The notes beneath the pieces are model-generated. The model was not told the DNA's origin, did not search any database, and was given only the letters and a program-made list of their open reading frames with translations. Source: an uncultured Gammaproteobacteria bacterium (GTDB lineage Bacteria; Patescibacteriota; Patescibacteriia; UBA1558; 2-01-FULL-52-15). Taken from it: a DNA stretch of 64,000 nt. Numbering within the stretch: the stretch's first letter is position 1; the number at the start of each line of letters is the position of its first letter. The stretch spans positions 504,802 through 568,801 of the forward strand of contig CAYOCJ010000001.1 in assembly GCA_964402565.1 (NCBI GenBank), in the 5' to 3' direction. A program made the translations under genes and the position numbers. Shown here one piece after another: positions 1,300 to 43,719 of this stretch.

Positions 1300-4200
1300 A
1301 TGTTAAAAAAGCTACATACCAAAAGGGGGGTACGTACCGGCTTTTACGTCTTCGTCATTGCCGGTTTAGTTTTAAATAATTTCAGTAGCATCAGGATCCC
1401 AGTGACCTATGCTGCTGACAGCGGATTCTTCGCAGCAAACGCGACCGTTGCAAGCAATAGCGTCACCAGTCCTGACAATGGCTGGGTATCTGATGATAAT
1501 CGCGCAACGTTCAATGCAACAGGCGATACCGCTGATTATAGCTTCGGAAACCTTGGTTTGCCGGCAAATGCCCAGATCGATGGCATTGAAGTTACGATCG
1601 AAGGCCAGAGATCGAGTAGCCGCAATTTGAGCGCAGCGCTATGGAATGCTTCGAACAGTAACCCAGACGCTTATAGCTCAAGCTCAACCGCAACGTTGAA
1701 CACGAATAGCGACACCGTCGTCACGCTCGGCGGACCAACATCAAAGTGGGGCAAGAACTGGGATTCAAATGATTTTGGTGCATCGTTCAAGATCCGAGTA
1801 GCTGGCGCCTCAGGCAGCGGAAACGCCCTGTTGGATCAGCTTCGAGTCAAAGTCTACTACAGCACCTTACCTCAGAGTGCTGAAAATCCATCACTTCCAA
1901 ACTCATGTGGCTTGGATGTGTCTTTAGTTTTGGACAACTCTGCATCCATCGACAACACTGAACTCGGTCAGATGAAGACTGCTTTCAAAGGTTTCGTTGA
2001 TGCATTAGCACCAGGAACTCCAACAGATTTCTCAGTCACGAAGTTCAATAGCAATGGCAGCACTGTATTGGACCCATTCTCTGCAAACGCAACAACGGTG
2101 AAGAATGCGATCGACTCTGTAACCACCTCAAGCGGTCACACAAACTGGGAAGATGGTTTGAACGTTTCTTTCGGGATCTCAGACCCGCGACCTTCTAATC
2201 CGAACGTCATGGTCTTTGCTTCTGACGGAGACCCAAACCGCAAGATCGGTTCAGTCGCTGACATTTCAGCTTTCGACGCAATGACAGCTGCTATCAATAA
2301 GGCAAATACGATCAAAGGCGCTGGCACTCGAATAATTACTCTCGGTGTCGGTAACGCTATCAATACTGCGAACTTGGTCGATATTTCAAGCGCTGACGCA
2401 AACTTCACTACAGCAAACTTCAGCGATCTGAATACAACTTTACAGAACCTCGCTCAGGAGCTTTGTGGCGGAACCATCACGGTTACCAAGAGAATTGGCA
2501 CCCCAGACAGTTCTGTTGCTGCGGGTGAAGGCTGGACATTCAATATCGGCGGAAACCCGAACAAAAACACTGACACAAATGGACAGACTCCATCAGTAAA
2601 TTTGACGAACGGAACCTACGTTGTAACCGAAACCGGCGGCCCTTCAGGCTATGCGTTCAATAGCGCAACATGCGAAGGCGCGACCAATGATGGTTCGTCG
2701 ATCGCAAATGGCGTTGAAGGAATCCAGGTTGGAACGAATGATATTGTCTCATGCACATTCTATAACACTGCAAATGCAGGAACACTAACCGTCATTAAGA
2801 ACGTTGTTGGCGGTGATGCGCAGGCATCTGATTTCAACCTAACGGTAGATAATGGTAACCCGGGATCATTCCCAGGCAGTTCAATAGGCACTGCGGTTAC
2901 AGTTGCTGCTGGAGCATCATACAATGTTGGTGAAGATCCAGTATCAAACTACTCGCCAAGCTATTCTGAAGGCTGTTCAGGTGTTATGCAGCCAGGTGGC
3001 CAGGTTGAGTGCACTGTTACCAATACATACACACCGCCTCAGGAGACAACCGGAACAGTAACCGTGATCAAAAAAGTCACTAAGGATAATGGCGGCACCG
3101 CTGAAGTGGGCGACTTTACCCTTATGGTTGGCGATACATCTGTTGTATCCGGTGAAGCTAATGCATTTTTCCCTGGGCCATACGCGGTCAGCGAAACCGG
3201 CGGCCCTTCAGGCTATGCGGGTTCATTCAGCGGAGACTGCGATGAAAATGGAAATATAAACGTTGTTGCAGGCGAGTCATATGTCTGCACCATCACCAAT
3301 GATGATATTCAACCGAAACTGACCGTTCAAAAGATCGTTGTTGGCGGTAACCTCGATGCAAATAACGTCCCCTTATTCGTGAATGGAGACCCAGTCACCA
3401 ATAATGTTACGAACGGATTTGATGCAGGGACTTACACTGTCAGTGAAACGCCGCAACCAAACTATATTCCAAGTTTCAGTGAGAATTGTCCAAATGGACA
3501 GATCTCATTGGTAGTAGGACAGGAAGCTACCTGTACCATTACGAACACCTACAATCCGCCGGTCGAACAGGACACGACCAATATCGTCGCAACTAAGATC
3601 GTCTGTCAGGATGAAGCAGACTTGCCGAACTGGGGAGAGACCGGTCAGCCGGATATCACCTCTTCGACAGCTGCAGATTTCTTAGCAACACACCCTGGTT
3701 GCCACTTGGCTCCAGACTGGACCTTCCAATACGGCTTTGCTGATAAAGAAGGCCAGGAAGGTGTCGACAAGCTGCCCGGAGATATCATCGGCGACGCAGA
3801 TGGTACGGACTCTACTGGTATGTGCAATGCACCATACTGCGGAGCTAATACCAATACCGGAACCGGCTACAGCGACTGGAAATCATTCGGACCGACAAAC
3901 GGTTCAGGTGAAGCATCAGTTTCGATCAGCGATCTTGAAGGAGCATCTTCTCTCTGGGTTCGTGAATCATTGAAGCCCGGCTATATCCCGTTCACCTATC
4001 CGCCACAGGGTCCGGATGAGAACAATGTAACTGCTGAGATCTATTGCCATAAGGATACGAACCATTACGACAACTATGACAATATTGAAGATGTCTCAGC
4101 TGGAAATACCTACTACTGTGTAGCATTCAATGCACCAAAGCCATTGACTATCGTTGCAAATAAGATCGTTTGTGAAAATGAATCAGACTTGCCGAACTGG

Positions 4201-5091
4201 GGAGAGACCGGTCAGCCGGATATCACCTCAAGTACCGCGACTGAATTCCTGGACACACATCCAAATTGCCACTTACAACCTGATTGGAAGTTCCAGTGGG
4301 GATATGGTGACAAGGATGGCCAAGAAGGCGTCGATAAGCTTCCAGGCGACTTCGTAGGTGAGGCTACTGCTGCCGGTGATTCAACCGGCATGTGCAGCAC
4401 CCCATACTGCGGTGCGAATACAGAGACAGGCCTTGGCTACTCAAACTGGAAGACTTTTGGCCCTACCGATGTAAATGGTACGACCTCAGTGAATATTTCA
4501 GACCTGCAGGGTGCTTCATTGATCTGGGTACGTGAAGTCTTGAAAGATGGGTATATTCCATTCACCTATCCGCCAGAAGCACCGGATGCTGACAATGTGT
4601 CGGCGGAGATTTACTGCAGCATGGATACTAACCACTACGATAATTACGACAATATCGCAAATCCAGAGCTTGGAAATACATACTACTGCGTAGCGTTCAA
4701 TGCTCCAAAGCCTGGTACTGATGTCTGTAACAATATCGAAGGAATTCAGTCAATTATCCCTGATGGTATGGTCTCGAACGGCGAAGGCGGTTGTGAGACC
4801 CCGCAGGATCCAGGCGGTGGTAGTTCGATCACAACCTCAGGCGGTGGTGGTGGAGGAGGAGGCGGTGGCGGAGGAATTCCGAATTTCCCGAACCAGCCAA
4901 CTGGCTCTGATAATCCAAAAGTAGAAGGTTTCTCTACAACCGTTCCTGATAACCCGACTGTTCTCGGATTCGAAGTATTGCCGAATACAGGCGGTGACCT
5001 TACCGGCTACTATGCGGCTGTCAGCACACTCTTTACGCTTATTCTCAGCACGCTCTACGTAAGCTATCGTAGACGCTCAGCGAAAGCATAA
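1300..5091 (+). CDS. Sortase-anchored surface adhesin: signal peptide, vWA domain (MIDAS DxSxS), several Ig-like/CnaB-like beta-sandwich repeats, two tandem ~189-aa Cys-rich repeats, poly-Gly linker, LPNTG sorting signal
   Basis: N-terminal hydrophobic signal (FYVFVIAGLVL). DVSLVLDNSASID vWA MIDAS motif. Repeated T-V-x-K-x-V / VGG..DA..FNL segments typical of isopeptide/CnaB-type domains. C-terminus LPNTGG followed by a hydrophobic TM segment and an RRRSAKA tail, the classic cell-wall sorting signal. A sortase gene lies immediately downstream. Confidence 0.85.
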   Translation: MLKKLHTKRGVRTGFYVFVIAGLVLNNFSSIRIPVTYAADSGFFAANATVASNSVTSPDNGWVSDDNRATFNATGDTADYSFGNLGLPANAQIDGIEVTIEGQRSSSRNLSAALWNASNSNPDAYSSSSTATLNTNSDTVVTLGGPTSKWGKNWDSNDFGASFKIRVAGASGSGNALLDQLRVKVYYSTLPQSAENPSLPNSCGLDVSLVLDNSASIDNTELGQMKTAFKGFVDALAPGTPTDFSVTKFNSNGSTVLDPFSANATTVKNAIDSVTTSSGHTNWEDGLNVSFGISDPRPSNPNVMVFASDGDPNRKIGSVADISAFDAMTAAINKANTIKGAGTRIITLGVGNAINTANLVDISSADANFTTANFSDLNTTLQNLAQELCGGTITVTKRIGTPDSSVAAGEGWTFNIGGNPNKNTDTNGQTPSVNLTNGTYVVTETGGPSGYAFNSATCEGATNDGSSIANGVEGIQVGTNDIVSCTFYNTANAGTLTVIKNVVGGDAQASDFNLTVDNGNPGSFPGSSIGTAVTVAAGASYNVGEDPVSNYSPSYSEGCSGVMQPGGQVECTVTNTYTPPQETTGTVTVIKKVTKDNGGTAEVGDFTLMVGDTSVVSGEANAFFPGPYAVSETGGPSGYAGSFSGDCDENGNINVVAGESYVCTITNDDIQPKLTVQKIVVGGNLDANNVPLFVNGDPVTNNVTNGFDAGTYTVSETPQPNYIPSFSENCPNGQISLVVGQEATCTITNTYNPPVEQDTTNIVATKIVCQDEADLPNWGETGQPDITSSTAADFLATHPGCHLAPDWTFQYGFADKEGQEGVDKLPGDIIGDADGTDSTGMCNAPYCGANTNTGTGYSDWKSFGPTNGSGEASVSISDLEGASSLWVRESLKPGYIPFTYPPQGPDENNVTAEIYCHKDTNHYDNYDNIEDVSAGNTYYCVAFNAPKPLTIVANKIVCENESDLPNWGETGQPDITSSTATEFLDTHPNCHLQPDWKFQWGYGDKDGQEGVDKLPGDFVGEATAAGDSTGMCSTPYCGANTETGLGYSNWKTFGPTDVNGTTSVNISDLQGASLIWVREVLKDGYIPFTYPPEAPDADNVSAEIYCSMDTNHYDNYDNIANPELGNTYYCVAFNAPKPGTDVCNNIEGIQSIIPDGMVSNGEGGCETPQDPGGGSSITTSGGGGGGGGGGGGIPNFPNQPTGSDNPKVEGFSTTVPDNPTVLGFEVLPNTGGDLTGYYAAVSTLFTLILSTLYVSYRRRSAKA
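3587..4713 (+). repeat. Intragenic tandem duplication (2 x ~567 bp) encoding a 6-Cys domain (KIVC..DLPNWGETGQPDITSST...CHL.PDW...PYCGANT...NHYDNYDNI...YYCVAFNAPKP)
   Basis: Two ~189-aa protein repeats with >75% identity. They include a 44-nt perfectly identical DNA stretch (3619-3662 and 4185-4228). Confidence 0.85.
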
Positions 5092-5108
5092 CAAACCAAC
5101 TGTACGGA

Positions 5109-5765
5109 ATGCAGCTCAGGAAACGATACACATTCCTTGCAATCATCATTCTGGCCATATTCGCGGTAACGCTGATATGGCCAGGGTTTGTTATTAATGC
5201 ATTAAGCGAATTCGTAAGCGGCATTAAACAGGGCAGCGACGTCATACAAAAGATACATACCCCGAGCGACATCTTGTCTGAGATCAATTTCGATGTACCG
5301 ACCGATACCAGCACGTCCACGGTCGCGTTTACACCGCCGGACGAGAATGGCGATAATCATTTGATCATACCGAGCATCGGGGTAAATGGCGAGGTTATCA
5401 TCAGCGACAGTCAAAATGCACTCAATAAAGGATTCTGGCATATTCCAGGCTCCGCAGTTCCGGGTACGAAAGGCAATATCGTTGTTTCAAGTCACCGATG
5501 GTTTCATATACCGCCGAATCCAGTAACGTTCTACCGGATCGATGAAGTCAAGATAGGCGATCCTGTCTTCTATAATTACAAAAACAAGCGCTACACGTAT
5601 CAGGTTACTGAAACGAAGATCGTCGACCCGACTGACGTGCATATCTTGGATCAGGACGAAGATAAATTGACGCTTTTTACCTGCCATCCGTTATTTTCTA
5701 CCAAGCAGAGGTATGTGGTGATAGCTACATTCGTTTCAGTCAGTGACATCCCAGCAAAGGAGTGA
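5109..5765 (+). CDS. Sortase (transpeptidase), N-terminal membrane anchor
   Basis: N-terminal TM segment (FLAIIILAIFAVTLIW). Conserved His region (NIVVSSHR). LTLFTCHP motif matching the sortase TLxTC catalytic Cys. It lies directly downstream of the LPNTG substrate gene. Confidence 0.8.
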   Translation: MQLRKRYTFLAIIILAIFAVTLIWPGFVINALSEFVSGIKQGSDVIQKIHTPSDILSEINFDVPTDTSTSTVAFTPPDENGDNHLIIPSIGVNGEVIISDSQNALNKGFWHIPGSAVPGTKGNIVVSSHRWFHIPPNPVTFYRIDEVKIGDPVFYNYKNKRYTYQVTETKIVDPTDVHILDQDEDKLTLFTCHPLFSTKQRYVVIATFVSVSDIPAKE

Positions 5766-6557: not shown

Positions 6558-6601
6558 CTGCATCGCCGTAGTATGGTATACTATGTATAACATACCATTT
6601 T

Positions 6602-6979
6602 ATGAAAGATCGGGTATTTGTCGATAGCGACAATATTTTAAACTGGATACCAGGCAATCAAACCGGCGACGTCGAAGGAACCAGCATGTCAGTGAATGTG
6701 CTGTCAGAGTTATTGGAGGAGCGCAGCCCTTCATGTGTTCTGGTTGACCTTTCGCGCGCACAGCGGCCGAACACGCTGCAGCGCCAGATCATTATCAATG
6801 GCCTGCAATCGAATCGCCACAATATTCAAAAAATCGCGCTTTTCGGTGAATCGCCTTTGATGAAAGCAGTTTCGTACTTTATCATCAATACATCGGGATA
6901 CGAGAACATGAAATTTTTCTCAAGTCGTAATAAGGCGGTGACCTGGCTCAAAGAAGGCGAACAAAAAAGCTCTACATGA
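6602..6979 (+). CDS. Hypothetical small protein, possibly STAS/SpoIIAA-like fold
   Basis: 125 aa with no strong motif. The C-terminal ...FFSSRNKAVTWLKEG resembles STAS-domain ends. Its stop overlaps the start of the next gene (ATGA), which suggests translational coupling. Confidence 0.35.
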   Translation: MKDRVFVDSDNILNWIPGNQTGDVEGTSMSVNVLSELLEERSPSCVLVDLSRAQRPNTLQRQIIINGLQSNRHNIQKIALFGESPLMKAVSYFIINTSGYENMKFFSSRNKAVTWLKEGEQKSST

Positions 6980-8061
6980 AATACGGCGAATCATCTCACG
7001 CGGTAGGCATTGATATCTCTGATGGCAGCCTTGAACTCGCAAATATTCAGGAACGTCGGGATGGCGTTCCTGTTTTGATTGATTATGCGCGAGTTACGCT
7101 GCCGGAGCATGTGATCGTGCATGGGCGCATACAGGACGAACCCTTGCTGGACGAAGCTCTCGAGGAGCTACTCGACCAGACAAGCCTCGAGCTGAGGAAT
7201 GTGTCGGTCTGTACAGCTTTGCCTGATTCTCAGATCATTACGAAAATCTTACCCTTGCCGAAAAGTCCGGAAATCCCTTCTTTTGATTCGCTGCATCAAA
7301 GCGCACAATTGCTCTATAAGAGCCTGAATTTTAGGATTGAGGATCCAGTACTGCAATGGACATTCCATGAGCTCCCTGACACGTCAGGCGAATTGACTCT
7401 TTTTGCAACAGCGGCCGATGCGGTGCATCAGTGGGAACGTTTTTTCAAAAAAGAAGGCATGGATCTCCTGAGCCTTGAAATGGAATCTCTTGCCCTCCAG
7501 CGGGCCTTTATTCAAAAGATCCCTCATAATGAATCGATTGCGCTCATTGATTTCGGTTTTAGAATGACGATCATTTCAATAGTTGATGCCAGCGGCCTTC
7601 GGTATTCGCATACCATAGATCAGGGCGGTTTTGATCTCACCACTGCAATTGCGCGGACCACCTCGGCCAAGCTCGACACTGCAGAGCGTTTGAAAATTTC
7701 AGTAGGTCTAACGAATCGGGCTGACAAACCGCTGCACGCGCTTATCACAAAAAATATCGACGACCTATTGCATCTCATTCATGCGTCCTTACAGGACTTC
7801 GGCGGTGCCGTTGACTCGATCATTATTACCGGAGGAGGAGCGAGGCTTCGGGGCATCCGTGCTGAAACCGAGCATGTGCTCAAAATTCCCACCAAGCGTG
7901 GGATTCCTTGGTTTTCACAAGTCCACCAGGTAAAAGGCCAGCTCAACTCCACACAAATTGAGACCACAAAAATGCCTTTGTACGCCGGCGCTTTAGGTCT
8001 TGCATTGCGCGGCATGAATCGATATACTCTTGCGAAAGGAATTAATTTTATCGATGAGTAA
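6976..8061 (+). CDS. PilM-like actin-fold ATPase (type IV pilus assembly protein PilM family)
   Basis: N-terminal VGIDISDGSLELA (the GIDIGS-type phosphate-1 loop of the PilM/FtsA fold). Central LTLFATAAD...LSLEMESLALQRAF. C-terminal IIITGGGARLRGI, matching the PilM LTGGGA motif. Confidence 0.65.
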   Translation: MKYGESSHAVGIDISDGSLELANIQERRDGVPVLIDYARVTLPEHVIVHGRIQDEPLLDEALEELLDQTSLELRNVSVCTALPDSQIITKILPLPKSPEIPSFDSLHQSAQLLYKSLNFRIEDPVLQWTFHELPDTSGELTLFATAADAVHQWERFFKKEGMDLLSLEMESLALQRAFIQKIPHNESIALIDFGFRMTIISIVDASGLRYSHTIDQGGFDLTTAIARTTSAKLDTAERLKISVGLTNRADKPLHALITKNIDDLLHLIHASLQDFGGAVDSIIITGGGARLRGIRAETEHVLKIPTKRGIPWFSQVHQVKGQLNSTQIETTKMPLYAGALGLALRGMNRYTLAKGINFIDE

Positions 8062-8084
8062 CGTGCTGGTCGAGTTCGCTACAT

Positions 8085-9602
8085 ATGTCGCAGGATAAAC
8101 GAAGTTTTTTAATGTACCGCGCACTGGAAATGTTGCCAGGTATTTTAGTATGGGCAACGTTCATCGCTGTTACTGCTCTGTCACTGGTCAGGCCGATTTT
8201 AGCCATTTATTTTATTATCTTGTTCGATCTCTACTGGCTGCTTCGCGTTTCGTATTTGATGCTGTATATTTTCATATCGTGGACTCGCTATCGAAAGACC
8301 AAACGCATCGACTGGAACGAACAGCTTGAAAAGGACTTTCATGATGCAAAGACAAAACGCTGGAGAGAGTATTGGCATGTTATTTTTCTGCCGACATATA
8401 AAGAACCACTCGAGATAGTTGAGGCGAGCATTCGGGCCATCGTTGATTCATCGTACCTAGATAAAAAAAAGATGATCGTGGTGCTCGCAGGCGAGGAGCG
8501 AGATGGTCAGCATTTCAAATCGGTTGCCGAACACATTACGAAAAACTATCAGCAGCACTTCAATGCATTGCTCGTTACCATTCACCCAAGCGGGATTGAT
8601 GGCGAATTGCCTGGCAAGGGTTCTAATTTGTACCATGCGGGGCATGAAGCGCAAGCGTACATTGACCGGCAGGCTATTGAGTACTCAAAAATAATCGTAT
8701 CCACTTTTGACATCGACACCATCGCGCATCGTCAGTATTTTTCATATTTGACGTATCAATTTTTGAACCACCCAAATCCCTACCGTGCGAGTTTCCAGCC
8801 ATTGACGTTTTATCATAATAATATTTGGGAATCTGATCTCATTACGCGCGTCGTCGCGAATTCGACGACCTTTTGGCTCCTGACGGACCTTGCCCGTTCT
8901 GATCGATTGTTCACTTTTTCATCGCACAGCATGAGCTGGCGCGCTCTCGTAGATATAGGTTTTTGGCAAAATAACATCGTAACCGAAGACTCGCGGATCT
9001 TTTTGCAATGCCTTATCCGCTACAATGGCGATTACCAGGTATTCCCTATGTATATAACGGTTTCGATGAATACCGTCTTCGTAGGCTCGCTGAAACGCAG
9101 CCTGATCAATCAATATAAGCAAATGCGCCGCTGGGCATATGGCGTCGAGCATTTTCCGTATATGGTGTGGCACTTTTCGCGGAATAAAAAAATACCGCTG
9201 AAAAAAAAGATCTCATACCTTTGGAATCAGACTGAAGGCGTATATTCATGGGCAACTGCACCGATCATTATGTTCATCGCAGGACGCCTGCCTCTCATGA
9301 TCACGGACATCAATAAAGATAATTCGATTGTCATTCAGCAGGCACCGCTGATCCTGAGTTTTATCATGACCTTAGCGCTCTGGGGCATCATTGTCATAGC
9401 CATACTCAGCACCCTCATCTTGCCTCCGCGGCCAATGAAAGGGATGAATAAAGTGATCCAGTATGGAGTCATGGTCGCTCAATGGGCCTTGTTTCCGATT
9501 ACCATGATCATTTTCGGGGCATTCCCGGCTATCGACGCACAGACGCGGCTAATGATCGGCAAATATTTGGATTTTTGGGTGACTGAAAAAAAATCCGTCT
9601 GA
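8085..9602 (+). CDS. Processive family-2 glycosyltransferase (cellulose/chitin/PNAG-synthase-like) with N- and C-terminal TM helices
   Basis: DxD (FDIDTIAH), TED motif (VTEDSRIF) and QxxRW motif (QMRRWAYG). Multiple TM helices flank the catalytic domain. Confidence 0.75.
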   Translation: MSQDKRSFLMYRALEMLPGILVWATFIAVTALSLVRPILAIYFIILFDLYWLLRVSYLMLYIFISWTRYRKTKRIDWNEQLEKDFHDAKTKRWREYWHVIFLPTYKEPLEIVEASIRAIVDSSYLDKKKMIVVLAGEERDGQHFKSVAEHITKNYQQHFNALLVTIHPSGIDGELPGKGSNLYHAGHEAQAYIDRQAIEYSKIIVSTFDIDTIAHRQYFSYLTYQFLNHPNPYRASFQPLTFYHNNIWESDLITRVVANSTTFWLLTDLARSDRLFTFSSHSMSWRALVDIGFWQNNIVTEDSRIFLQCLIRYNGDYQVFPMYITVSMNTVFVGSLKRSLINQYKQMRRWAYGVEHFPYMVWHFSRNKKIPLKKKISYLWNQTEGVYSWATAPIIMFIAGRLPLMITDINKDNSIVIQQAPLILSFIMTLALWGIIVIAILSTLILPPRPMKGMNKVIQYGVMVAQWALFPITMIIFGAFPAIDAQTRLMIGKYLDFWVTEKKSV

Positions 9603-11893: not shown

Positions 11894-13327
11894 TTACTTA
11901 ACAATGATAGGGTCTCCGGTCGGGTGTAGATCGAGCACAGCGTCGCTCGTGGTGATGATATTTGACCATTTGTAGCCAATAGTCGTGAAGACCTTTTCCG
12001 AAGTGACATGTCTTTTTTTTCCATTCGATATGACATAGACATCCGGACCTGATCCCTTGACCAGTACGCCGTCTCGCAATAAAACCGGGAAGCCACTTGG
12101 ATATTTCGAAAGGGTATCGGAAGCGACCAAGCTTGTTTTCATAGTTGGATAGTCGATTTGCATGATAGCCTTGTCCAAAATAGGATAGCGCCTTCCGGAC
12201 TCAACGTAGAAGATCTCTTTCGTCTTTTTATCCTGAAGTAGCGCTCCGGTAGGGTATGCATCGCTCAGGCTGATCGGCCTGCCGTCAGGGATCACGCTGG
12301 CTGCTTCGTCAGTAATATCTTCGACTTCTTCCGGATTGAAGCCTAAATTTTTAAATACATCCGGGGATGTAATCAAGCGCTTTTGATCAACTGTAAGCAA
12401 ATAGATCGACCCTGATGTTTTTGCTTTGACCAGCGAGTAGGCAGGAAAGTCAATGGAATAATCCTCAGGGTACAACTCCAAGTCTGTCTTTGTAATAGGC
12501 ACCACCAGTTTCGGGTCGTATCTGGAAACCAGCGCAAGCCGAGAAGTGAATGCATGGCGGACCGAATCTTTGATCAGCCACACGCCTGCTTCGCCGGGAA
12601 CTTGCACCAAGGTCGTGTCAGGCAGGATCGAAACGAAATACCGCTGCCAAAGCGCCTGGAAAAGCTTATTGCCGTGAAGATGCGGCGTATAGTTATACAG
12701 TGCAGCAGTTACTCTGTTCTTTGGAGAGACCGTTATGCCGTCTACGGTCGACTGCCTGCCTGGTTGATATGAGTATTCGTCAATATGGTCGTAATAATAC
12801 CGGAACTGTTCTGCGGCGCTCGGGATTTGTTTGTAAATGCCTCTCCACCGCTCATTGCATGCCTGCCCGTCAAGACATCCGTATCCTGTAGCCCAATCAA
12901 GCTGGTTTTGGGTAGGGGATGGTTCTTCTATAAGACTTTGTTCCTTTTGCAGCAAAACGAGCAAAAACTGCGGGTTGATGTGATGATTTTGTGCTGCTCG
13001 AAATATTTGCTCAGCAATTGACAACCGTTCACCCGTATCGAGCGTACTAAAATACGTCGACAAATAACTCTGCTTACTGGTCAAAAAATCTTGGATGTCC
13101 TGCTGATCCATGGTCTGATAGGCGACCATTTCTTCATCAGAAATGATATACGAGTAATCAAAGGTATCATCCGTTTGTGCAAACGCATGGAGAGGCAGAA
13201 CCGAGGCCAACAAAAAAATTGAAAGTCCGACAGCTAGCGGCTTATATGCATACATAGTGAATGTAGTGTTGACGAAAAGCAGAGCATATTGTTTGACTAT
13301 TATAGCATATATGCACGATATACTCAA
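11894..13327 (-). CDS. Secreted protein with N-terminal signal peptide and four C-terminal ~55-aa repeats (probable cell-envelope binding)
   Basis: Signal peptide (LAVGLSIFLLASVLPLHAFA). Four degenerate repeats with the pattern G..Y.i..g.kr.I.S..vF...G.....I.... Confidence 0.45.
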   Translation of the reverse strand: MSISCIYAIIVKQYALLFVNTTFTMYAYKPLAVGLSIFLLASVLPLHAFAQTDDTFDYSYIISDEEMVAYQTMDQQDIQDFLTSKQSYLSTYFSTLDTGERLSIAEQIFRAAQNHHINPQFLLVLLQKEQSLIEEPSPTQNQLDWATGYGCLDGQACNERWRGIYKQIPSAAEQFRYYYDHIDEYSYQPGRQSTVDGITVSPKNRVTAALYNYTPHLHGNKLFQALWQRYFVSILPDTTLVQVPGEAGVWLIKDSVRHAFTSRLALVSRYDPKLVVPITKTDLELYPEDYSIDFPAYSLVKAKTSGSIYLLTVDQKRLITSPDVFKNLGFNPEEVEDITDEAASVIPDGRPISLSDAYPTGALLQDKKTKEIFYVESGRRYPILDKAIMQIDYPTMKTSLVASDTLSKYPSGFPVLLRDGVLVKGSGPDVYVISNGKKRHVTSEKVFTTIGYKWSNIITTSDAVLDLHPTGDPIIVK

Positions 13328-23103: not shown

Positions 23104-24048
23104 TTATTTTTTTAGGGGATGAAATTTCTGATGCTCTGATTCAGCATAACGATCTGACGCATGTACATAGCGCGTCGTCGTATCAAGTGATTCATGGCCG
23201 AGGAGGACTTGAATTGCGGCCGGGTTAGCTCCTGATTCTGCCAAATAGGTTGCAAAACCATGCCGCAGGCTATGCGCGCTCGTTGGCACATTGATATTCA
23301 AAGCTTCCCGATACTCTTTGATCTTTGCCTGCAAATAATTGGATGAAATGCCTTTGAAGCTGCTGCCGGTATTTCTGCCGCGCAATGGTACCCACAGATG
23401 CGGCAAGCGATCGCCGCGAGTCTTCAAATAGCGGTCGACCTGTTTCAAAGCGCGCTCAGTCAGATACACAAAACGCTCCTTTTTGCCTTTTCCTTTGATA
23501 AAGATCTTGCCGGACTTATAATCGATCTGGTCGCGTTTCAGGCTGAGGAGCTCAGAAATACGCATGCCGGTAGCAAACAGCATCTCAAGCATAGCGCGAT
23601 TGCGCAAACCAACATGTGCATCTTTTTCAAGAGCCTCAGGAGACTCAATGAGCTTGATGAGTTCATCAAGTTCAGCGACTCTGCCATGTTTCTTGTCAGT
23701 GCGGATCAATTTGATCGCCTCGGGCGCCATCGGAACCTTCTCATCCATGTCGATCATAAACTTCAGATAATTCCGTAGTGATGAAAGCATGCGGTTAACT
23801 GAAAAGCTTGAAAGCTTGCCATGTACCTTAGCGCCTTTAGCAGTACGCCTATTGATAGAGTAGAGGTAGGCTTTATAGTCCTCAATAGTAGATTTCTTGA
23901 TAGAGGAGAACTTGGTCTTTTGATACGTCAAAAAATTCTCAAACGTTGTTAAGTCGCGCTCATAATTCAAAAGAGTTTCTTCAGAATAATTGTTGCTCTG
24001 CAAGAATCTGAGAAAGGTCTCTTTTTTTGGAAGCGGGGAATCAGGCAT
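23104..24048 (-). CDS. Tyrosine site-specific recombinase, XerC/XerD-type
   Basis: N-terminal SAM-like core-binding domain (ETLLNYERDLTTFENFL). Catalytic R..HxxR..Y signature (HSLRHGFATYL ... LLGHESLDTTTRYVH). Confidence 0.8.
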   Translation of the reverse strand: MPDSPLPKKETFLRFLQSNNYSEETLLNYERDLTTFENFLTYQKTKFSSIKKSTIEDYKAYLYSINRRTAKGAKVHGKLSSFSVNRMLSSLRNYLKFMIDMDEKVPMAPEAIKLIRTDKKHGRVAELDELIKLIESPEALEKDAHVGLRNRAMLEMLFATGMRISELLSLKRDQIDYKSGKIFIKGKGKKERFVYLTERALKQVDRYLKTRGDRLPHLWVPLRGRNTGSSFKGISSNYLQAKIKEYREALNINVPTSAHSLRHGFATYLAESGANPAAIQVLLGHESLDTTTRYVHASDRYAESEHQKFHPLKK

Positions 24049-24426: not shown

Positions 24427-27042
24427 TTAGCAACCAATACTCGTACAGCCTGTTTGCGTACAAGTAATACTACATGATGGCTGCACTGGCCCATTCGCAA
24501 ATGTATTGACGCCAAACACATTGTATGAGAAAGACTTTGCTTTTGTATCCCCTGCGCAAAAGGTATAGTCAAAACGATATGGTAATGCTGGCCACGTCGC
24601 CTGAGTCGCAGGTTCATCGATAGTACAAATCTTCTTACCTACGGCAGGTAATTCCTTTCCTGAACAATTAGTGCCTTGATCAGCTTGAATAGATCCGCCT
24701 TTGAGCTGGCATACTGTCAGTGCTGAAACAAGTGCGTTTGCCGTTGATTTTGCTGATGCTACACTCGTGTTATAGAGCTGATTACCAACTCCTGCGCTAG
24801 TCTCTGCTCCTAAATTCCGGGGCGGATACCAAACATCATAATAATCTAATTTACCCGGACCTGCGGGCTCATAACCTTTTGTCACTTCATCGCCATCGGA
24901 GTAGCCATCGCCATCTGAATCTTTTTTATTTGGATCCGAACCATAGTATGCTTCGACAATATCCGGCAGCCCATCAGCATCAGTATCAACGGCTAATGCC
25001 ACCTTTGCCTCCACTGAGATCTCAGTAGCATTTGCCGTGTTGACGCCATTCACATAATTAACAGCCTCATTCACGCCAAATCCGTTCGACATCCCCATGA
25101 ATCCTCCGCCTCCATTGCTTGCCTGTTCTTTTACGCGATGCGGAATTTGCATGGTATATTTCAATGTATACGCATCAGGATTGGTCAGCTTCTCGTATAT
25201 AAACTGCTGTCCGGTGAAACCATCCTGCGGAACAGTTTTCAAGAATGGCGTTTCAGCCAGCTGCTTCTCATACTCCGGATCATTGAAAGAGTTAAAACTA
25301 TCAGGAAAGTCGATCTGAACACCTGTCGCGTTGGTATTGGTAACGGTCTTTTTCGGCGCTTTCGTGAGCTTGCCTCGCGGCGTCGTCAACTCATCGAGTG
25401 AAGCAGGATAAGCCCCGGTATAGGATTTAAACTCAGACAAGGCGCTTCGAACCAGATCTACATTGGTTTGTTGACGCTGTGCACGGTACATTTCTTTTGT
25501 CATGCCGGTAAGCGCTAGTTGCGCATCTTCGAACGATATAGCACCAGCCGGCTCCTCTACCACGACCGGAACATTGATATTGCTTAAGCTCAATGTGAGA
25601 TCAAGTCCGATCTGTTTATCCTTCAGTTTCGTAGCTTTCGCGCCCGGTACGATCCTGAAGCGGTATGACATCTGGACCGGATAACCGGTGTTCTTATCGA
25701 TCAGTATCTTTAACTTGGTATTATTTTTTATAAAGGTTAAGTACTTGGTAAAGGTATCCGTTTTCATGTACCGAAGTGATGTTTCGTCAAGCTTTACCAT
25801 GGCATCAGCTCCGAACTTATCCTGTAATTCCTTGCTCAAATGCTCATACCAGGCAGCGACTTTTGTCTCGTCATACGTAACATTGTAGGCATAGGCCTGG
25901 GTCGTCCCTAAGCTTTCATCAGGCAATGACATGTCAACTTGCAGCACTTTGTCTTCATCCATAGTTTTCAGGATCGTCTGGAACTGTTCCAGCGCCTGAG
26001 TATTCTTCTGCTGCTTATCTCCGATAAACGTACCGATATATGACAAGTCTGAATATCCTACCAAATCCTCCGGCACTGCCTTGATCCATTTATTTTTAAT
26101 GGCGGTCAGATCAATGAATAGAGACGGAAATTTGGAAACCATGCCATAGTAGGTATCGCCTTTTTTCCGCAGCTCAAACTCGGCAGCGACATTGAAGTCT
26201 CCAAACGAAGCGTCCCCTCCAAGATGAAAATTGGCGTCTGCTTTTTTTGCCTGATCTTTCGTCGACGTGCCGCCTGCTCTGAGGTTAAAACTGAAATCAG
26301 ATGGCGCATAATCGAGGTACTCATCAGCGCCCTGCTCAAGCGTCGAAACCCAGGATGGCCTATGCGGTTCACCATTAAAGTAAAAATATGATTCGCTTTT
26401 CTTAGATAAGGTCACTTTTTTGCCATCGACCTGTGTTACTTCTTTTTTGCTATAGCCGGCGACTGCTTTTACGGCATCATCAGTCTCAAACGTGACTGAA
26501 AGCGCATAATCATCATTGCCAGCGTTTAATGCATAGGTAAAATCGCTCAGGTTCTTGGCTGTGAGTGCCGGCACATCAGAAAGCTGATTTGGATATGCGG
26601 TATTGCTTTGACGGTATACCGATAATGCGGACTGGATTGACTGCGCATCAGACACCCTATTCGCATCTCGCTCATACATTTGCGTGTCATTCACAAATTC
26701 AGGAAAGGTAAGAGGCTCGAACGCAGTCGCTCCTGCTTCCCTCGGCTCAGCCTGCAGGCCGAACTTAGCTTCGTACGTTGCTGAGTTTATCGACTGAATT
26801 TTAGAAAAAAAGTTTGCAAAAGCACTTTGCTTCGAAGCAGGACCCATACCCTGGAATGGCCAGATCTTAAAATAAAAAGCGGCTCCTGCATAGGAACCAA
26901 TCACGAGGACGCCGAGTAAGACGATAATAACCATCCATGGCGTTTTTTTAGCTGCCGGCTGCAATGGCTGTGACGACTCAGGCATGGTCGTAACCGGCAT
27001 AGGCGCCTGCTGCGGCGGCTGTTGATATGGTTGTTGGTCCAT
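24427..27042 (-). CDS. Large membrane-anchored surface protein: Pro/Gln-rich N-terminus, single TM, TSP3-like Ca-binding aspartate repeats, Cys-rich C-terminal domain
   Basis: TM segment WMVIIVLLGVLVIGSYAGAAFYF. DTDADGLPD...DSDGDGYSDGDE resembles type-3 thrombospondin Ca-binding loops. Ten Cys lie in the last 100 aa. Confidence 0.6.
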   Translation of the reverse strand: MDQQPYQQPPQQAPMPVTTMPESSQPLQPAAKKTPWMVIIVLLGVLVIGSYAGAAFYFKIWPFQGMGPASKQSAFANFFSKIQSINSATYEAKFGLQAEPREAGATAFEPLTFPEFVNDTQMYERDANRVSDAQSIQSALSVYRQSNTAYPNQLSDVPALTAKNLSDFTYALNAGNDDYALSVTFETDDAVKAVAGYSKKEVTQVDGKKVTLSKKSESYFYFNGEPHRPSWVSTLEQGADEYLDYAPSDFSFNLRAGGTSTKDQAKKADANFHLGGDASFGDFNVAAEFELRKKGDTYYGMVSKFPSLFIDLTAIKNKWIKAVPEDLVGYSDLSYIGTFIGDKQQKNTQALEQFQTILKTMDEDKVLQVDMSLPDESLGTTQAYAYNVTYDETKVAAWYEHLSKELQDKFGADAMVKLDETSLRYMKTDTFTKYLTFIKNNTKLKILIDKNTGYPVQMSYRFRIVPGAKATKLKDKQIGLDLTLSLSNINVPVVVEEPAGAISFEDAQLALTGMTKEMYRAQRQQTNVDLVRSALSEFKSYTGAYPASLDELTTPRGKLTKAPKKTVTNTNATGVQIDFPDSFNSFNDPEYEKQLAETPFLKTVPQDGFTGQQFIYEKLTNPDAYTLKYTMQIPHRVKEQASNGGGGFMGMSNGFGVNEAVNYVNGVNTANATEISVEAKVALAVDTDADGLPDIVEAYYGSDPNKKDSDGDGYSDGDEVTKGYEPAGPGKLDYYDVWYPPRNLGAETSAGVGNQLYNTSVASAKSTANALVSALTVCQLKGGSIQADQGTNCSGKELPAVGKKICTIDEPATQATWPALPYRFDYTFCAGDTKAKSFSYNVFGVNTFANGPVQPSCSITCTQTGCTSIGC

Positions 27043-30098: not shown

Positions 30099-30971
30099 CT
30101 ACTTCAGATAGACATTATCATCATAACGGAGGTCTATATATTCTGCCGGCGCCTCAAAGTTACGATCCTGGAGATACACAGAAAGACGCTGTAATTGAGG
30201 GTGAATATCCTTATTCGGATCTACGTACACGCGAAATCCCTTATCGGTCGAAACGATAATGCGATCCTTGTCGTCAGTTAGATGAAAGCCGGTAAGCGCA
30301 GCCAGCTGGATCGATTGGCCCCAATCCTCAGCAATGGTCGTAGCTTTTTCCAGATAGTCTACCGGAATGCTGCGCTCTTTAACCGCGCGCTCATCAGCTA
30401 TCAGCAATTGATTCGGCTGAGGTTTGTCGACGGTTTCAAGAGCTTTCCCATCAGTGCCTAAGGTAAAATAGCCGTCCGGTGTTTGCACCACAAATGCAGT
30501 GATGCGCTCATGGACCGAGATCGTGACCGTATGCGGAAAAGATACATGCAGCGATGTGACGGTCAGATAAAACCGCTGCTCAAGCCTTTTCCTCATTTTT
30601 GTCTGAGCCAATAAGAAATAATTATCATTGCGGAAGATGAACAGCCGGCGTCTGTGCAATTCATCCATGATGAAGGATTGCACCTGTTCCAGAGGAATAT
30701 ATTTCAAACCCTGTATGCGCACATCGGTGATCCTGAACTGAGGGATCTGAAAGATGCTCTGCATCAGCAAAAAAACAGCGATCACAATAATGGCGATTTT
30801 CGCATACCGATAGCTCGCGGTCGGCGTTTTTCGTGAATACTGATTCTGATACAATGCTGAGCGGCCGGTGATCTGTGGGGCCATGCCGCCGTGATTTGCA
30901 ATAAACCGCGCCCGCGGCGTTTGATACAATTTTTGATTGATGCGTGGTATGCGTTTGTCCATACTGAACAC
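30099..30971 (-). CDS. ftsQ: Cell-division protein FtsQ/DivIB-like (TM + POTRA)
   Basis: Cytoplasmic N-terminus, then TM segment IAIIVIAVFLLMQSIF, then a POTRA-like FRITDVRIQGLKYIPLEQVQSFIM. Confidence 0.6.
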   Translation of the reverse strand: MFSMDKRIPRINQKLYQTPRARFIANHGGMAPQITGRSALYQNQYSRKTPTASYRYAKIAIIVIAVFLLMQSIFQIPQFRITDVRIQGLKYIPLEQVQSFIMDELHRRRLFIFRNDNYFLLAQTKMRKRLEQRFYLTVTSLHVSFPHTVTISVHERITAFVVQTPDGYFTLGTDGKALETVDKPQPNQLLIADERAVKERSIPVDYLEKATTIAEDWGQSIQLAALTGFHLTDDKDRIIVSTDKGFRVYVDPNKDIHPQLQRLSVYLQDRNFEAPAEYIDLRYDDNVYLK

Positions 30972-37945: not shown

Positions 37946-38389
37946 TCATTTCTGAATTTGAGAGGACCAAAAAATTTTTTTATCATGCAGCCATTCAGCT
38001 ACACTTTCCTTCAAACCGGCGGGCAGGATATGCGTCGCGGACATTTCCGTCAAAGGCAGCCATGCAAATGAAATGTGATCTTCGCGCGAGCGCACTTCAG
38101 ACTGTGCAAGCGATCCGACAAAGACAAAACTATACTCATGCCGTTTTTGCCCGTCCTGAACAAAAAAATTCTCTGCGCTGCCCATATAGTCGCCAACATG
38201 AAGATCTAAACCGGTCTCTTCTTTTAGTTCGCGGACCAGGCATGCTTCCGCAGTTTCACCAAATTCAATATGCCCGCCTGGAAAAAAATAATGTCCTTTT
38301 CCCTGCGCTCTGCATAACAATATGCGGTCGTCATGGACAATAACAGCCCGTGCCACTAATTCAATGCCGTGCAGTTCAAGCATGCTCAT
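37946..38389 (-). CDS. NUDIX hydrolase
   Basis: Nudix box GGHIEFGETAEACLVRELKEETGL. Confidence 0.88.
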   Translation of the reverse strand: MSMLELHGIELVARAVIVHDDRILLCRAQGKGHYFFPGGHIEFGETAEACLVRELKEETGLDLHVGDYMGSAENFFVQDGQKRHEYSFVFVGSLAQSEVRSREDHISFAWLPLTEMSATHILPAGLKESVAEWLHDKKIFWSSQIQK

Positions 38390-39191
38390 ATTCGATGTGA
38401 GGATTGCTCTTTCCGCGGTACTTCATGAAATACTTGATATAACTGATATTATGCGCACGGGTGCTTTTATTGAAGAGCAGCGACAGTGCGGTGCCCTCCG
38501 AAGACCCTCCGCGCATACGAATCGCCTTTGCTTGCGGGACATACCAGACTTCATACTTTTGTTCCCAAAATCGTCGACACCAGTCAGTATCCTCAAGATA
38601 CAGGAAAAAACTTTCATCCAGATGCCCGACGCGCTCAAGCGAGCTCATGCGGGTAAGATAGCATGTACCAAAAAGCCAATCAACGCGTCGCTCAGTCGCG
38701 TGGTCCCATTCACGCAAAAAATACCAATCGAGCCATCGTTTCCCAAAAGACGTCGATCCGAGAAACGTTCTTCGAAAGAACGGCAGCCAGGGGTTTGGGA
38801 ATCTGCCGCATGTATACTGTAATGTACCATCTCCATTGCTGATCGCCGGCCCTGCAATGCCTGCCATCGGATGCTTCTCCATAAAAGCATGCAGCGTTTC
38901 GACCAGCGCCGCGGTCAACACCGTATCAGGGTTAATGATCAATGCGTACGCTCCCTGAGCATTTCTCAAACCGATATTATTGCCGGCTGCATATCCATTA
39001 TTATGCTCTGATTGAATAAATCGAACCTGCGGAAATGCATGAGCCATAAGCTCGCCGATGCCGTCATTCGAGTTATTATCTACGACGATAACTTCGACGC
39101 TGAGAGCACACGGCTGTAGATAGAAATGCTTAAGCTGCTCTGCAACCAGCTTCTTGCTTTTATAATTGAGTATGATGATCGAAACATCCAT
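38376..39191 (-). CDS. Glycosyltransferase family 2
   Basis: SIIILNYKS...VIVVDNNSNDG plus DxD context. Confidence 0.85.
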   Translation of the reverse strand: MDVSIIILNYKSKKLVAEQLKHFYLQPCALSVEVIVVDNNSNDGIGELMAHAFPQVRFIQSEHNNGYAAGNNIGLRNAQGAYALIINPDTVLTAALVETLHAFMEKHPMAGIAGPAISNGDGTLQYTCGRFPNPWLPFFRRTFLGSTSFGKRWLDWYFLREWDHATERRVDWLFGTCYLTRMSSLERVGHLDESFFLYLEDTDWCRRFWEQKYEVWYVPQAKAIRMRGGSSEGTALSLLFNKSTRAHNISYIKYFMKYRGKSNPHIEYEHA

Positions 39192-39192
39192 A

Positions 39193-40248
39193 TCATTGAA
39201 GGAGTTGAGCCATGTCTTTCAGCAACGCTGCTTTATTTTTTTGGATCATACGCCTTTTCTTCTTGAACTTCGGCAACAGTTGGAAAAATTCCAACATTCC
39301 CTTCGGGCTTGAGCCGTCCAAAAAAGCTAAATAAAAAAACTTTCCTGTCTCGAACCAGATCACTGACGGCAATTTTTTTAGCGTAATACGCCACTGATGA
39401 TTTTTGTATACCGTGAGCAAATGGTTCCGATATGAGTATCGGTTTATGCCTGAGCGCTTTTTTCGATCAGAACGGTTTTTGGGACTAAGCTCTTGCATGT
39501 ATGAAAACTCAGTTCCATCATTTCCATTTGTGCTTACTGCGCGTATCGTACGCTGATGAAATGCTATTGCATCGCCGACCAAATGCTGCTCGCAATTCTG
39601 CAAGTTAAGCCGCCAGGCAATATCGACATCTTCCTTGTATAAGAAAAAATCCTCGTCAAAATACTCGTTACCGACGCCGCCGATCCGCGGTAGTTTCACG
39701 GCTTCAAGAGCAGACCTGCGGAACATGACGCATGCACCGCTTAATCCAAAAACGCGATGAGAAACCGTTGCTTGATTTTTTTCACTCTGCATGATATCGG
39801 ATGATCGATACGGTCCCTTCACTTGTATCCCGCAGCTGTCGATCGTCCCGACTGGCTGATGCGCAGCATGGTCCCATGAGAGCAGCTTCGGTCCGACCGC
39901 GCCTGCGTGGGCATGCGCATCTGCATATCGCACCAGGCGTTCGAGGCAATGTTCTTCAAAAATAAAATCAGGGTTCACGACAAGCACATATTCAGATTTT
40001 GACCAGGCAATCGAGAGGTTATGCGCCTTTGAAAAGCCGATATTTTCCTTTTGGCGGATGACCTTCGCACTAGGCATGCATTCGCTGACCACCGCTGCTG
40101 ATCGATCATAGGAAGCATTATCGATAGCGATCAATTCCCAGTCAGTGAATGTCTGAGCATGCAAGGAATCGCAAAAATCATGCAGGTATTTCTCGCTATT
40201 ATACGTGACGACGCTGATAGAGATTTTAGGCATATGCAGGTTCAACAC
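39193..40248 (-). CDS. Glycosyltransferase family 2
   Basis: ISISVVTYNSEKYL...LIAIDNASYDRS. The start may be a few codons downstream (MPKISI), since it overlaps the upstream gene by 23 nt. Confidence 0.82.
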   Translation of the reverse strand: MLNLHMPKISISVVTYNSEKYLHDFCDSLHAQTFTDWELIAIDNASYDRSAAVVSECMPSAKVIRQKENIGFSKAHNLSIAWSKSEYVLVVNPDFIFEEHCLERLVRYADAHAHAGAVGPKLLSWDHAAHQPVGTIDSCGIQVKGPYRSSDIMQSEKNQATVSHRVFGLSGACVMFRRSALEAVKLPRIGGVGNEYFDEDFFLYKEDVDIAWRLNLQNCEQHLVGDAIAFHQRTIRAVSTNGNDGTEFSYMQELSPKNRSDRKKRSGINRYSYRNHLLTVYKNHQWRITLKKLPSVIWFETGKFFYLAFLDGSSPKGMLEFFQLLPKFKKKRRMIQKNKAALLKDMAQLLQ

Positions 40249-41695: not shown

Positions 41696-42548
41696 AGCCG
41701 CGTATGCGTTGATAGACAGCGACCATCACCAGATTCAGCGGCACCGTCGCGAGTATGGAAAGATACCCGCGAAGTCCATAGTGCTTGCTATAGTAATGCA
41801 AGGCGCTTCGATTAAATAATTTTTGTTTCACGAGCGGCAGCGACTGGGAGAAGCTGCGTCCGCCATGGTGCGTGACCAGCACATGCGGTATATACCTGAT
41901 GCGTTCCCCTGCTTCACGGAATCGCTTGCTGAGATCGACTTCTTCGAACCAAAGAAAAAAACCTTCGTCAAAAAAACCTATGCGATCGAGCACCTCTTTG
42001 CGAATGAACATAGCCGCACCCATAGGCTGGTCTATATCCTGCTGCAGAGAAGGATCAAAATCATCGGCATAATACCGGCGCATGACCTTCACATGCGAAA
42101 GAAGGTATTGTAATTTCAATAAAATAATGACCTGTGAAGTAATGGTCGGGTCGCGCCTGATCGATCCTTTTTGAAAACTCCCGTCAGCATTGACGATCTG
42201 CGGCGCTGCAACGGCGACTCCGGGATGGTCGTCCATAAAGCTGATCAGCGATTCAAGAACTCCCTCATGTAACTCAGTGTCGGGATTTAAAATAAAAACA
42301 TACCTACCCTGCGCTTGTGCAAGGCCAATATTATTCGCGCGAGCGAATCCCCTGTTCATCCCCTGTGCCTTAACCTGCACCCATGGGTATTCGTCACGAA
42401 GCATTTCGAGGCTGCCGTCCGTGGAGCCATTGTCAACCACAATGACTTCTATGGTATAGGCATTGGTCCTGCGATGGATCGAGTCTAAGCATAATTTCAG
42501 ATACTCACGGACATTCCAGTTGACGATGATAATGGAGCAATCGACCAT
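41685..42548 (-). CDS. Glycosyltransferase family 2
   Basis: CSIIIVNWNVREYL...VIVVDNGSTDGS. Confidence 0.85.
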   Translation of the reverse strand: MVDCSIIIVNWNVREYLKLCLDSIHRRTNAYTIEVIVVDNGSTDGSLEMLRDEYPWVQVKAQGMNRGFARANNIGLAQAQGRYVFILNPDTELHEGVLESLISFMDDHPGVAVAAPQIVNADGSFQKGSIRRDPTITSQVIILLKLQYLLSHVKVMRRYYADDFDPSLQQDIDQPMGAAMFIRKEVLDRIGFFDEGFFLWFEEVDLSKRFREAGERIRYIPHVLVTHHGGRSFSQSLPLVKQKLFNRSALHYYSKHYGLRGYLSILATVPLNLVMVAVYQRIRGYGK

Positions 42549-42549
42549 A

Positions 42550-43716: not shown

Positions 43717-43719
43717 AGC

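Follow-up and report, generated by a model that had tools for sequence, protein, structure and literature searches.

We found a PilM paralog that is encoded together with a small STAS-like protein directly in front of a membrane glycan synthase, in a 64,000-nucleotide stretch of contig CAYOCJ010000001.1 from an uncultured member of the Patescibacteria. This whole stretch is called the window below. The synthase belongs to glycosyltransferase family 2 (GT2), and the three genes lie on the same strand in the order STAS-like, PilM-like, GT2. The middle protein is a soluble, clade-restricted paralog of PilM and not an FtsA, as judged from its profile scores and its fold. The STAS-like/PilM-like pair was gained once, in one Komeilibacteria-related clade, in front of a GT2 gene whose promoter it now shares.

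Each part of this triad is of a known kind, namely a PilM, a probable STAS-superfamily protein and a GT2 that resembles cellulose synthase (CesA) and hyaluronan synthase (HAS). Two aspects look new. The first is a naturally occurring PilM that has been reduced to PilM plus the docking motif of PilN, which is the counterpart of an engineered chimera of known structure (5EOU). The second is the fixed pairing, in one operon, of a PilM paralog, a STAS-like protein and a glycan synthase. Literature searches on PilM with STAS, on PilM-like proteins with polysaccharide and on Komeilibacteria returned no description of such a module, and no description of the product or the control of the GT2 was found in the literature searched.

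The PilM-like protein and its C-terminal tail

The initial annotation had called the middle protein PilM-like and had named FtsA as the assignment to be checked. Comparison with profile hidden Markov models favors PilM. The protein matches PilM_2 (PF11104) with 90.1 bits (E = 1.8e-25; cut-off 27) over residues 11-346 of 361, while its match to the FtsA domain PF14450, at 38.7 bits, is also above the cut-off of that family. The narrower model TIGR01175 gives 106.9 bits, under its subfamily cut-off of 133, and TIGR01174 (ftsA) gives 53.7 bits against a cut-off of 175.85. Because PF11104 passes and TIGR01175 stays below its cut-off, the protein is a PilM at the level of Pfam, but not at the level of the NCBIfam “pilM” subfamily. 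We then have a consistent ranking from structures. A profile built from 12 orthologs (mean column identity 52%) matches the PilM proteins of P. aeruginosa and M. xanthus in the PDB with 79-87 bits, T. thermophilus PilM with 44 bits, and FtsA with at most 40 bits.

The AlphaFold2 model of the protein is of high confidence (pLDDT 92.8, pTM 0.92). Its best match in Foldseek is 5EOU, the P. aeruginosa PilM:PilN1-12 chimera (E = 5.6e-26, TM-score 0.77-0.79). The top matches are 5EOU, 5EQ6, 5EOX, 3JC8 and 2YCH, with FtsA structures behind them. Among the nucleotide-binding residues, G11, D13, D192, G194 and G286 are invariant in the orthologs and G287 is nearly so. Hydropathy reveals no transmembrane segment. 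The family is small: there are only 13 ortholog clusters, all at 209 bits or more, and ordinary PilMs drop to 119 bits or less.

The protein thus shares much with the PilM of type IVa pili (P. aeruginosa 5EOX and 5EOU, T. thermophilus 2YCH, M. xanthus 3JC8). Common to them are the actin-like fold with its 1C domain (TM-score 0.77-0.80), the phosphate-1, phosphate-2 and adenosine motifs, and the C-terminal GLALRG helix. Unlike these proteins, it is encoded outside a pilMNO(PQ) operon, has no separate PilN or PilO gene, and has a STAS-like and a GT2 gene as its partners.

Beyond the scores, the protein does not have the C-terminal amphipathic membrane helix of an FtsA and carries in its stead a tail that matches the PilN motif. 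Its confinement to a narrow clade is also unlike a division protein, which should occur universally. An FtsA-type division protein is therefore a very improbable identity, even if PF14450 clears its cut-off, FtsA structures are the next-best fold matches, and the window holds an ftsQ gene (30099-30971) without an adjacent ftsA.

The C-terminal tail (Table 1) resembles the N-terminus of PilN. In the 12 orthologs, I356 and N357 never vary, and G355 and F358 hardly do. The motif reads I-N-F-[ILVM] across the family, and the protein ends one to three residues later (three in the window protein). The family profile pairs “...GLALRG-sreslsk-GINF” with “...GLALRS-FDSSGMAR-INL” of 5EOU, where the latter segment includes the fused PilN N-terminal peptide. 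In the model, tail residues 351-360 have a mean pLDDT of 94, above that of the surface loops.

Four other homologs from Patescibacteria (P0135, P0159, P0170 and P0216) are complete PilM-PilN fusions. Their junction consists of GLALRG, 6-11 residues, the motif (G)IN[LF]L, a basic stretch and a transmembrane helix; P0170 reads “AGINFLSS” at this point. The window protein has the same junction, but ends at the motif, where the fusions run on to the transmembrane helix and an extracytoplasmic domain. Since the tail and the junction match those of the fusions and the protein then stops without a transmembrane segment, we read it as a PilM-PilN fusion cut after the PilM-binding motif. From sequence and model, it looks like a truncated fusion whose groove is filled in cis, and we infer from the alignment and the model confidence that the tail docks there. 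No separate PilN with an INLLP-type peptide is available, as neither pilN nor pilO occurs in the operon, in the window or in the loci of relatives.

The engineered chimera, whose structure has been solved (PMC5805733), likewise carries the PilN N-terminal motif on the C-terminus of PilM; the difference is that the window protein is natural. The GspL/EpsL proteins of type II secretion are also fusions of a PilM-like and a PilN-like part, but the window protein has no transmembrane segment. EpsL and XpsL are structural homologs of PilM that bind the secretion ATPase (PMC6325625).

A further PilM from the same clade helps to interpret the tail. This protein (L013:7725-9092) is encoded in a Komeilibacteria genome (GCA_016204595.1, contig JACQKJ010000053.1) that also holds the triad on another contig. 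It sits at the end of a pilus cluster, after pilB, pilC and pilin genes, and is not followed by pilN or pilO. Its identity to the window protein is 30%, and it ends in “...GLALKGLNRGHLKKGINFLE”, with the tail KKGINFLE. In BLAST searches its best matches are the STAS-linked paralogs (143-168 bits), and ordinary PilMs of the candidate phyla radiation (CPR) reach at most 134 bits. The two proteins are reciprocal nearest relatives, and both have a KGINF[LI]E tail. The pilus-locus protein differs in having about 90 extra N-terminal residues with three hydrophobic helices, which the window protein lacks along with the pilus context. In this clade, a PilM that anchors and caps itself may have taken the place of the PilN/PilO anchor. 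The simplest history is that such a tail-bearing pilus PilM was duplicated in the lineage, and that the copy lost its membrane anchor and was placed with a STAS-like gene before the GT2.

The initial annotation had offered, as one option, a PilM apart from its usual pilMNO context. This can now be stated more sharply: the window protein is a paralog of a pilus-locus PilM and has kept, as a tail, only the PilM-binding motif of PilN.

The partner proteins and the gene unit

The STAS-like protein narrowly misses the cut-offs of two Pfam families, with 24.8 bits (2.4e-5; cut-off 26) for DUF7793 (PF25056) and 22.6 bits (1.8e-4; cut-off 25) for SpoIIAA-like (PF11964). All 13 of its orthologs match PF11964, with a best E-value of 1e-8. 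These orthologs form only 13 clusters, of 52-100% identity. In a search of 1.84 billion representatives, only a single cluster at 50% identity is found at E < 1e-30, along with about 500 weak relatives that are small (120-135 amino acids), stand-alone and unannotated. The sole match of the family profile in the PDB is the uncharacterised 3BL4 (E = 0.058). Like the PilM-like protein, it has no transmembrane segment by hydropathy. Its conserved core is VDL[ST][RK]AxRPN...QR.

Within this core, R55-P56-N57 occupy what we take to be the position of the SpoIIAA phospho-serine, based on an alignment by eye to SpoIIAA, which is a lead and not a test. No Ser or Thr is conserved in the family at this presumed phospho-site, and the annotation of the window includes no kinase or phosphatase gene in the operon or its neighborhood. 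For these two reasons, a phospho-switch in the style of SypA or SpoIIAA is unlikely. The similarity to such systems is of a more general kind: as with Vibrio fischeri SypA and the SpoIIAA/RsbV type, a small, stand-alone protein, in the window probably of the STAS superfamily, is encoded with polysaccharide genes (PMC4517449, PMC8256260), and in V. fischeri a STAS-only protein controls polysaccharide production (PMC4517449). In contrast to them, the window protein matches PF11964 and DUF7793 and not the classical STAS family, and it has no gene for a SypE- or SpoIIAB-type kinase or for a phosphatase nearby.

The GT2 is the sole membrane protein of the three. It matches the Pfam family Glyco_trans_2_3 with 32.1 bits. 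The motifs D209xD211 (FDIDT), T300-E301-D302, Q346xxR349W350 and KGSNL are invariant in 40 homologs. Hydropathy places hydrophobic helices at 13-62 and 414-485, on either side of the glycosyltransferase domain; the AlphaFold2 model (pLDDT 85) has helices at 3-73 and 336-491. These results agree with the initial annotation, which had listed DxD, TED, QxxRW and flanking transmembrane helices; the D motif is present as well. A search of solved structures with the single sequence found nothing, and the profile found only BcsA (E = 0.036). Foldseek relates the model to the Chlorella virus hyaluronan synthase (TM-score 0.54 over the full length). As there is no match to solved synthases at the sequence level, the GT2 was classed by its fold. 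It is a membrane enzyme resembling cellulose and hyaluronan synthases and may be processive.

Like BcsA, hyaluronan synthase, chitin synthase and the minimal cellulose-synthase-like PcManGT, the GT2 has the D, DxD, TED and QxxRW motifs, with two helices at the N-terminus and several membrane helices at the C-terminus. It differs from them in the absence of sequence-level similarity and of a PilZ domain. The locus also differs from the Bcs, Pga and Ica operons, because it has no genes for BcsB, a PilZ/cyclic di-GMP receptor, PgaB, PgaD or IcaD, and the neighbors are instead the STAS-like and PilM-like genes, xth, fmt and def.

The family of the GT2 is large, with more than 5,800 matches, and the best 120 of these all have at least 56% identity. 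The homologs carry the names Candidatus Komeilibacteria, Parcubacteria and “Patescibacteria group”. The GT2 is thus a Patescibacteria-wide gene of housekeeping type, usually located beside fmt-def. We considered whether a cytoplasmic peptide near its N-terminus could be a clade-specific dock for the PilM-like protein and rejected this, since YRxLE[IM]xPG is kept in 40 of 40 homologs, whether these have the pair or lack it. No more than four positions are specific to the GT2s of the triad clade (W97, M396, W433 and D496). The clearest of them is D496 (9570-9572), in YL[G/D]FWVTEK, which is Asp in 8 of 9 GT2s of the triad clade and Gly in 31 of 31 outgroup GT2s. As a separate observation on the start of this gene (8085-8111), the public call for an identical GT2 has 496 amino acids and begins at M10, but the alignment of 40 homologs favors the 505-residue form that starts at 8085.

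Table 1 Features of the locus and spacing between the PilM-like and GT2 genes in the window and in related loci (L numbers). aa, amino acids; nt, nucleotides; ORF, open reading frame
Feature	Position or locus	Strand	Detail
Extended -10 promoter-like box TGGTATACT	6574-6582	+	19 nt upstream of STAS-like ATG
STAS-like (SpoIIAA-like/DUF7793) gene	6602-6979	+	125 aa ORF
ATGA stop/start overlap of STAS-like and PilM-like genes	6976-6979	+	read in sequence
PilM-like gene	6976-8061	+	361 aa ORF
C-terminal tail G355-I-N-F-I-D-E361, resembling PilN N-terminus	8038-8058	+	alignment
GT2 gene	8085-9602	+	505 aa ORF
TGNTATACT extended -10 copies	6574, 16095, 20185, 24062, 27070, 57504, 63959		window scan
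PilM-like/GT2 spacing	L018		-4 nt (ATGA overlap)
PilM-like/GT2 spacing	L008		0 nt
PilM-like/GT2 spacing	L007		1 nt
PilM-like/GT2 spacing	L004		2 nt
PilM-like/GT2 spacing	window		23 nt (PilM-like stop to GT2 start)
PilM-like/GT2 spacing	L003		26 nt
PilM-like/GT2 spacing	L006		60 nt

The three genes are probably one transcription unit, because a conserved promoter-like box lies just upstream of the STAS-like gene and no box of the TGNTATACT type was found inside 6602-9602. The box of the window, TGGTATACT, or one of its variants TGCTATACT and TAGTATAAT, occurs 12-25 nucleotides upstream of the STAS-like ATG in seven relatives (L003, L004, L007, L008, L010, L011 and L019). The core TGNTATACT is enriched in the window, with seven copies compared to 1.1 expected and none of 100 shuffled sequences reaching seven. 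Five of the seven copies lie 13-27 nucleotides upstream of the start of an open reading frame. Given this enrichment and the closeness to gene starts, TGNTATACT looks like the usual promoter of the organism, with very short leaders. The sequence suggests more specifically that it is the dominant promoter type and that leaders are very short or absent, without an obvious Shine-Dalgarno sequence. TGGTATACT is then the probable start of the transcription unit. A generic scan for sigma-70 promoters and terminators gave nothing informative, and scans for Rfam families and tRNAs gave no matches.

The initial annotation had described a three-gene operon with an ATGA overlap and a 23-nucleotide gap. 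Both spacings are as described, the coordinates of the reading frames are exact, and the co-directional genes have their own promoter-like box. The overlap suggests that translation of the STAS-like and PilM-like genes is coupled. The same 4-nucleotide overlap occurs in L003, and gaps at this junction are 2-44 nucleotides elsewhere. At the junction to the GT2, the spacing of -4 to 2 nucleotides makes it hard to see how the GT2 could have its own promoter in at least four genomes, barring a promoter inside the PilM-like coding sequence.

Overlapping the -10 box of the window is a perfect 7-bp inverted repeat (ATGGTAT/ATACCAT, 6573-6598) with a 12-nucleotide spacer, which ends 3 nucleotides before the STAS-like ATG. 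We rejected this repeat as a candidate operator, as it is not kept in relatives.

The triad is intact in nine of nine distinct genomes with a visible GT2 (the window, L003, L004, L006, L007, L008, L010, L011 and L018), and is present wherever the GT2 has at least 67% identity and its flank is visible. Two more short contigs carry the STAS-like/PilM-like pair, and a scan of metagenomes with the STAS alignment added only three short loci, all with the STAS-like gene followed by the PilM-like gene. The genes are thus neighbors in every genome that carries the pair, in line with the conservation that the initial annotation had made the test of its proposal. The neighbors in all pair-carrying loci are xth (or a ClpB-like gene), the STAS-like gene, the GT2, fmt and def, and none of these loci is in a pilus cluster. 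The most informative locus is L018, where a ClpB-like gene replaces xth upstream and the PilM-like protein is only 26% identical; the triad is intact there, and the stop codon of the PilM-like gene overlaps the GT2 start. Among the loci found, the pair was never seen away from the GT2.

Outgroups lack the pair. In L001 and L002, whose GT2s have about 58% identity, a DHO_dh-like gene precedes the GT2, and in L016 and L017 (61-62%) this place is taken by an M23 peptidase gene or by small genes; neither a STAS-like nor a PilM-like gene is present. In L002, pilin genes and PilC are located a few genes upstream of the GT2. The DHO_dh (PF01180) genes of L001 (4917-5996; Komeilibacteria-like) and L002 (4905-6008; Nomurabacteria-like) abut or overlap the GT2 start, and represent a conserved and unexplained partner in their own right. 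The arrangement GT2-fmt-def is widely kept.

Low ratios of nonsynonymous to synonymous substitutions (dN/dS) indicate that all three genes are functional and under purifying selection. Between L004 and L007 the ratio is 0.06 for the STAS-like gene, 0.11 for the PilM-like gene and 0.06 for the GT2, with a dS of 1.1-1.7 that is near saturation. For comparison, the values are 0.05 for xth and 0.13 for both fmt and def. The possibility that the PilM-like gene is a decaying pseudo-paralog was rejected on this basis, its ratio being like those of fmt and def at this near-saturated dS.

Possible roles of the pair

The reading that we prefer, though we give it somewhat less than an even chance, is that the pair is a cytoplasmic accessory module for the synthase. 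The tail would dock in cis and give a membrane-free PilM that is constitutively “PilN-bound”. The STAS-like protein would be made in stoichiometric amounts through coupled translation and would bind the PilM paralog, as we infer because in most relatives its gene overlaps the start of the PilM-like gene or lies close to it; this step would involve no phospho-switch. The pair would then serve the co-expressed synthase from the cytoplasmic side, as an accessory scaffold or a regulator, and might control when or where the polymer is made. This could happen in step with the pilus machine, given that PilM is known to contact PilB and PilC. A fuller account is more tentative, and we would sooner expect it to be wrong than right. 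In it, a duplicate of PilM lost its membrane partner except for a PilN motif that the protein itself binds, gained a STAS-like adaptor, and was recruited to regulate or scaffold the synthase in the cytoplasm. The L-E-[IM]-[IL]-P sequence conserved near the N-terminus of the GT2, which resembles the INLLP of PilN, might then vie with the cis tail for the groove of PilM.

In favor of a coupling to the synthase, the linkage persists, sometimes with overlapping genes, through the upstream rearrangement in L018, and the pair is absent from other contexts. Several points weigh against it. Thousands of genomes have a working GT2 but not the pair, among them the nearest outgroups (61-62% identity). 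The N-terminal peptide of the GT2 is the same in both situations, and the clade-specific positions number only four. A contact of the pair with the GT2, physical or functional, is a supposition from indirect evidence, and the docking of the tail is based on alignment and model confidence. Because the pair arose once, the nine genomes represent a single gain that was then retained. Adjacency by itself says little, as unrelated genes (GT2-fmt-def) also keep their order in these genomes. Compact CPR genomes often co-transcribe unrelated genes.

The main alternative is a role in which the pair regulates type IV pili and does no more than share a transcript with the GT2. The PilM paralog, soluble and capped by its own tail, would compete for PilB or PilC with the membrane-anchored PilM of the pilus locus, as a decoy or adaptor, and the STAS-like protein would be its input or partner. 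We regard this as rather unlikely, while taking it seriously: the nearest relative of the PilM-like protein is the pilus-locus PilM of the clade, which has the same GINF tail but three N-terminal hydrophobic helices; PilM pulls down the pilus ATPase (PMC6325625); and the GT2, whose family occurs elsewhere without the pair, shows no adaptation to it. The gene arrangement points the other way, since the pair is never in or next to a pilus locus, the 64-kb window has no pilus machinery gene, and several genomes retain the overlap or 0-2 nucleotide spacing with the GT2, which also survives the upstream rearrangement. That tight and persistent coupling also argues against a third role, in which the pair has some other cytoplasmic function (e.g., as a lineage-specific cytoskeletal or scaffold protein) and its place beside the GT2 is historical. 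Such a role is improbable for the further reason that the middle protein has retained the features of a PilM, namely the full-length PilM_2 match, the fold and the PilN-like tail. It draws what probability it has from the diversification of ASKHA/actin-fold proteins into many roles, from the generic and uncharacterised nature of the STAS-like family, with its 500 or so weak relatives and uncharacterised PDB match, and from the general conservation of gene order in these genomes.

The initial annotation had proposed a regulated module for the secretion of exopolysaccharide or a pilus glycan. This went beyond the data, as it was conjecture and no secretion partners are present. In its pilus-glycan form, the GT2 would glycosylate pilins and the PilM would link it to the pilus. 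A PilM-like gene and a glycosyltransferase gene do co-occur, and L002 has pilins and PilC near its GT2. However, the GT2 has the full membrane architecture of cellulose- and hyaluronan-synthase-like enzymes with QxxRW, it is not of the oligosaccharyltransferase type that modifies pilins, and it is conserved irrespective of the pair. We therefore give this form hardly any credence.

The rest of the window and the meaning of the module

Upstream of the triad, and on the same strand, are genes for HtrA, a surface protein of 1263 amino acids with VWA and SpaA domains, a sortase and exonuclease III (xth). Downstream and convergent are fmt, def and a LigB-family gene. The remainder of the window contains housekeeping genes, a Wzx/Wzy-type glycan cluster (38376-46268) and one large pilin-like protein. 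The initial annotation had noted the absence of pilN, pilO and pilT from the window; none of these was found in the 64 kb, and neither were pilB and pilC.

Some of these genes deserve mention on their own. The surface protein and the sortase (1300-5765) lie just upstream of xth, and the former has a weak LPXTG match. Relatives keep the sortase, but with other large cargo proteins (DUF4215, SGL/Vgb_lyase or SpaA). The pilin-like protein (24427-27042, reverse strand) has 871 amino acids, a weak N-terminal match to T2SSG/pilin-like domains and bacterial TSP3 repeats. Its gene is preceded by a TGTTATACT box and adjoins an integrase gene (23104-24048). Two tandem paralogs on the reverse strand (57952-59547 and 59550-61199) encode cofactor-independent phosphoglycerate mutases (iPGM_N plus Metalloenzyme). 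Lastly, a protein without any Pfam match is encoded at 11894-13327 (reverse strand); with its orthologs in L001-L007 it has 443-496 amino acids, and in all related loci, outgroups included, its gene is beside that of the LigB family.

The immediate impact of the module is modest, given a putative functional link and an uncultured clade of narrow extent (13 protein clusters). Its interest lies in what it would say about PilM and about the GT2. Homologs of PilMNO are known to have been co-opted by a machine other than a pilus, in the flagellar cage of H. pylori (PMC10823254), and the PilM of the window adds to this case of PilMNO parts reused outside pili. If the tail docks as proposed, the interaction between PilM and PilN at the groove can persist in cis after the other parts of the alignment complex have been lost. 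Patescibacteria are ultrasmall episymbionts in which pili and envelope polymers mediate attachment to the host (10.1101/2024.11.25.624915). A lineage-specific module that is hard-wired to the promoter of the GT2 would give a handle on the control of this enzyme. If the proposed role is true, the protein would be, as far as we found, the first of the PilM family that works with a glycan synthase and not with a filament machine.

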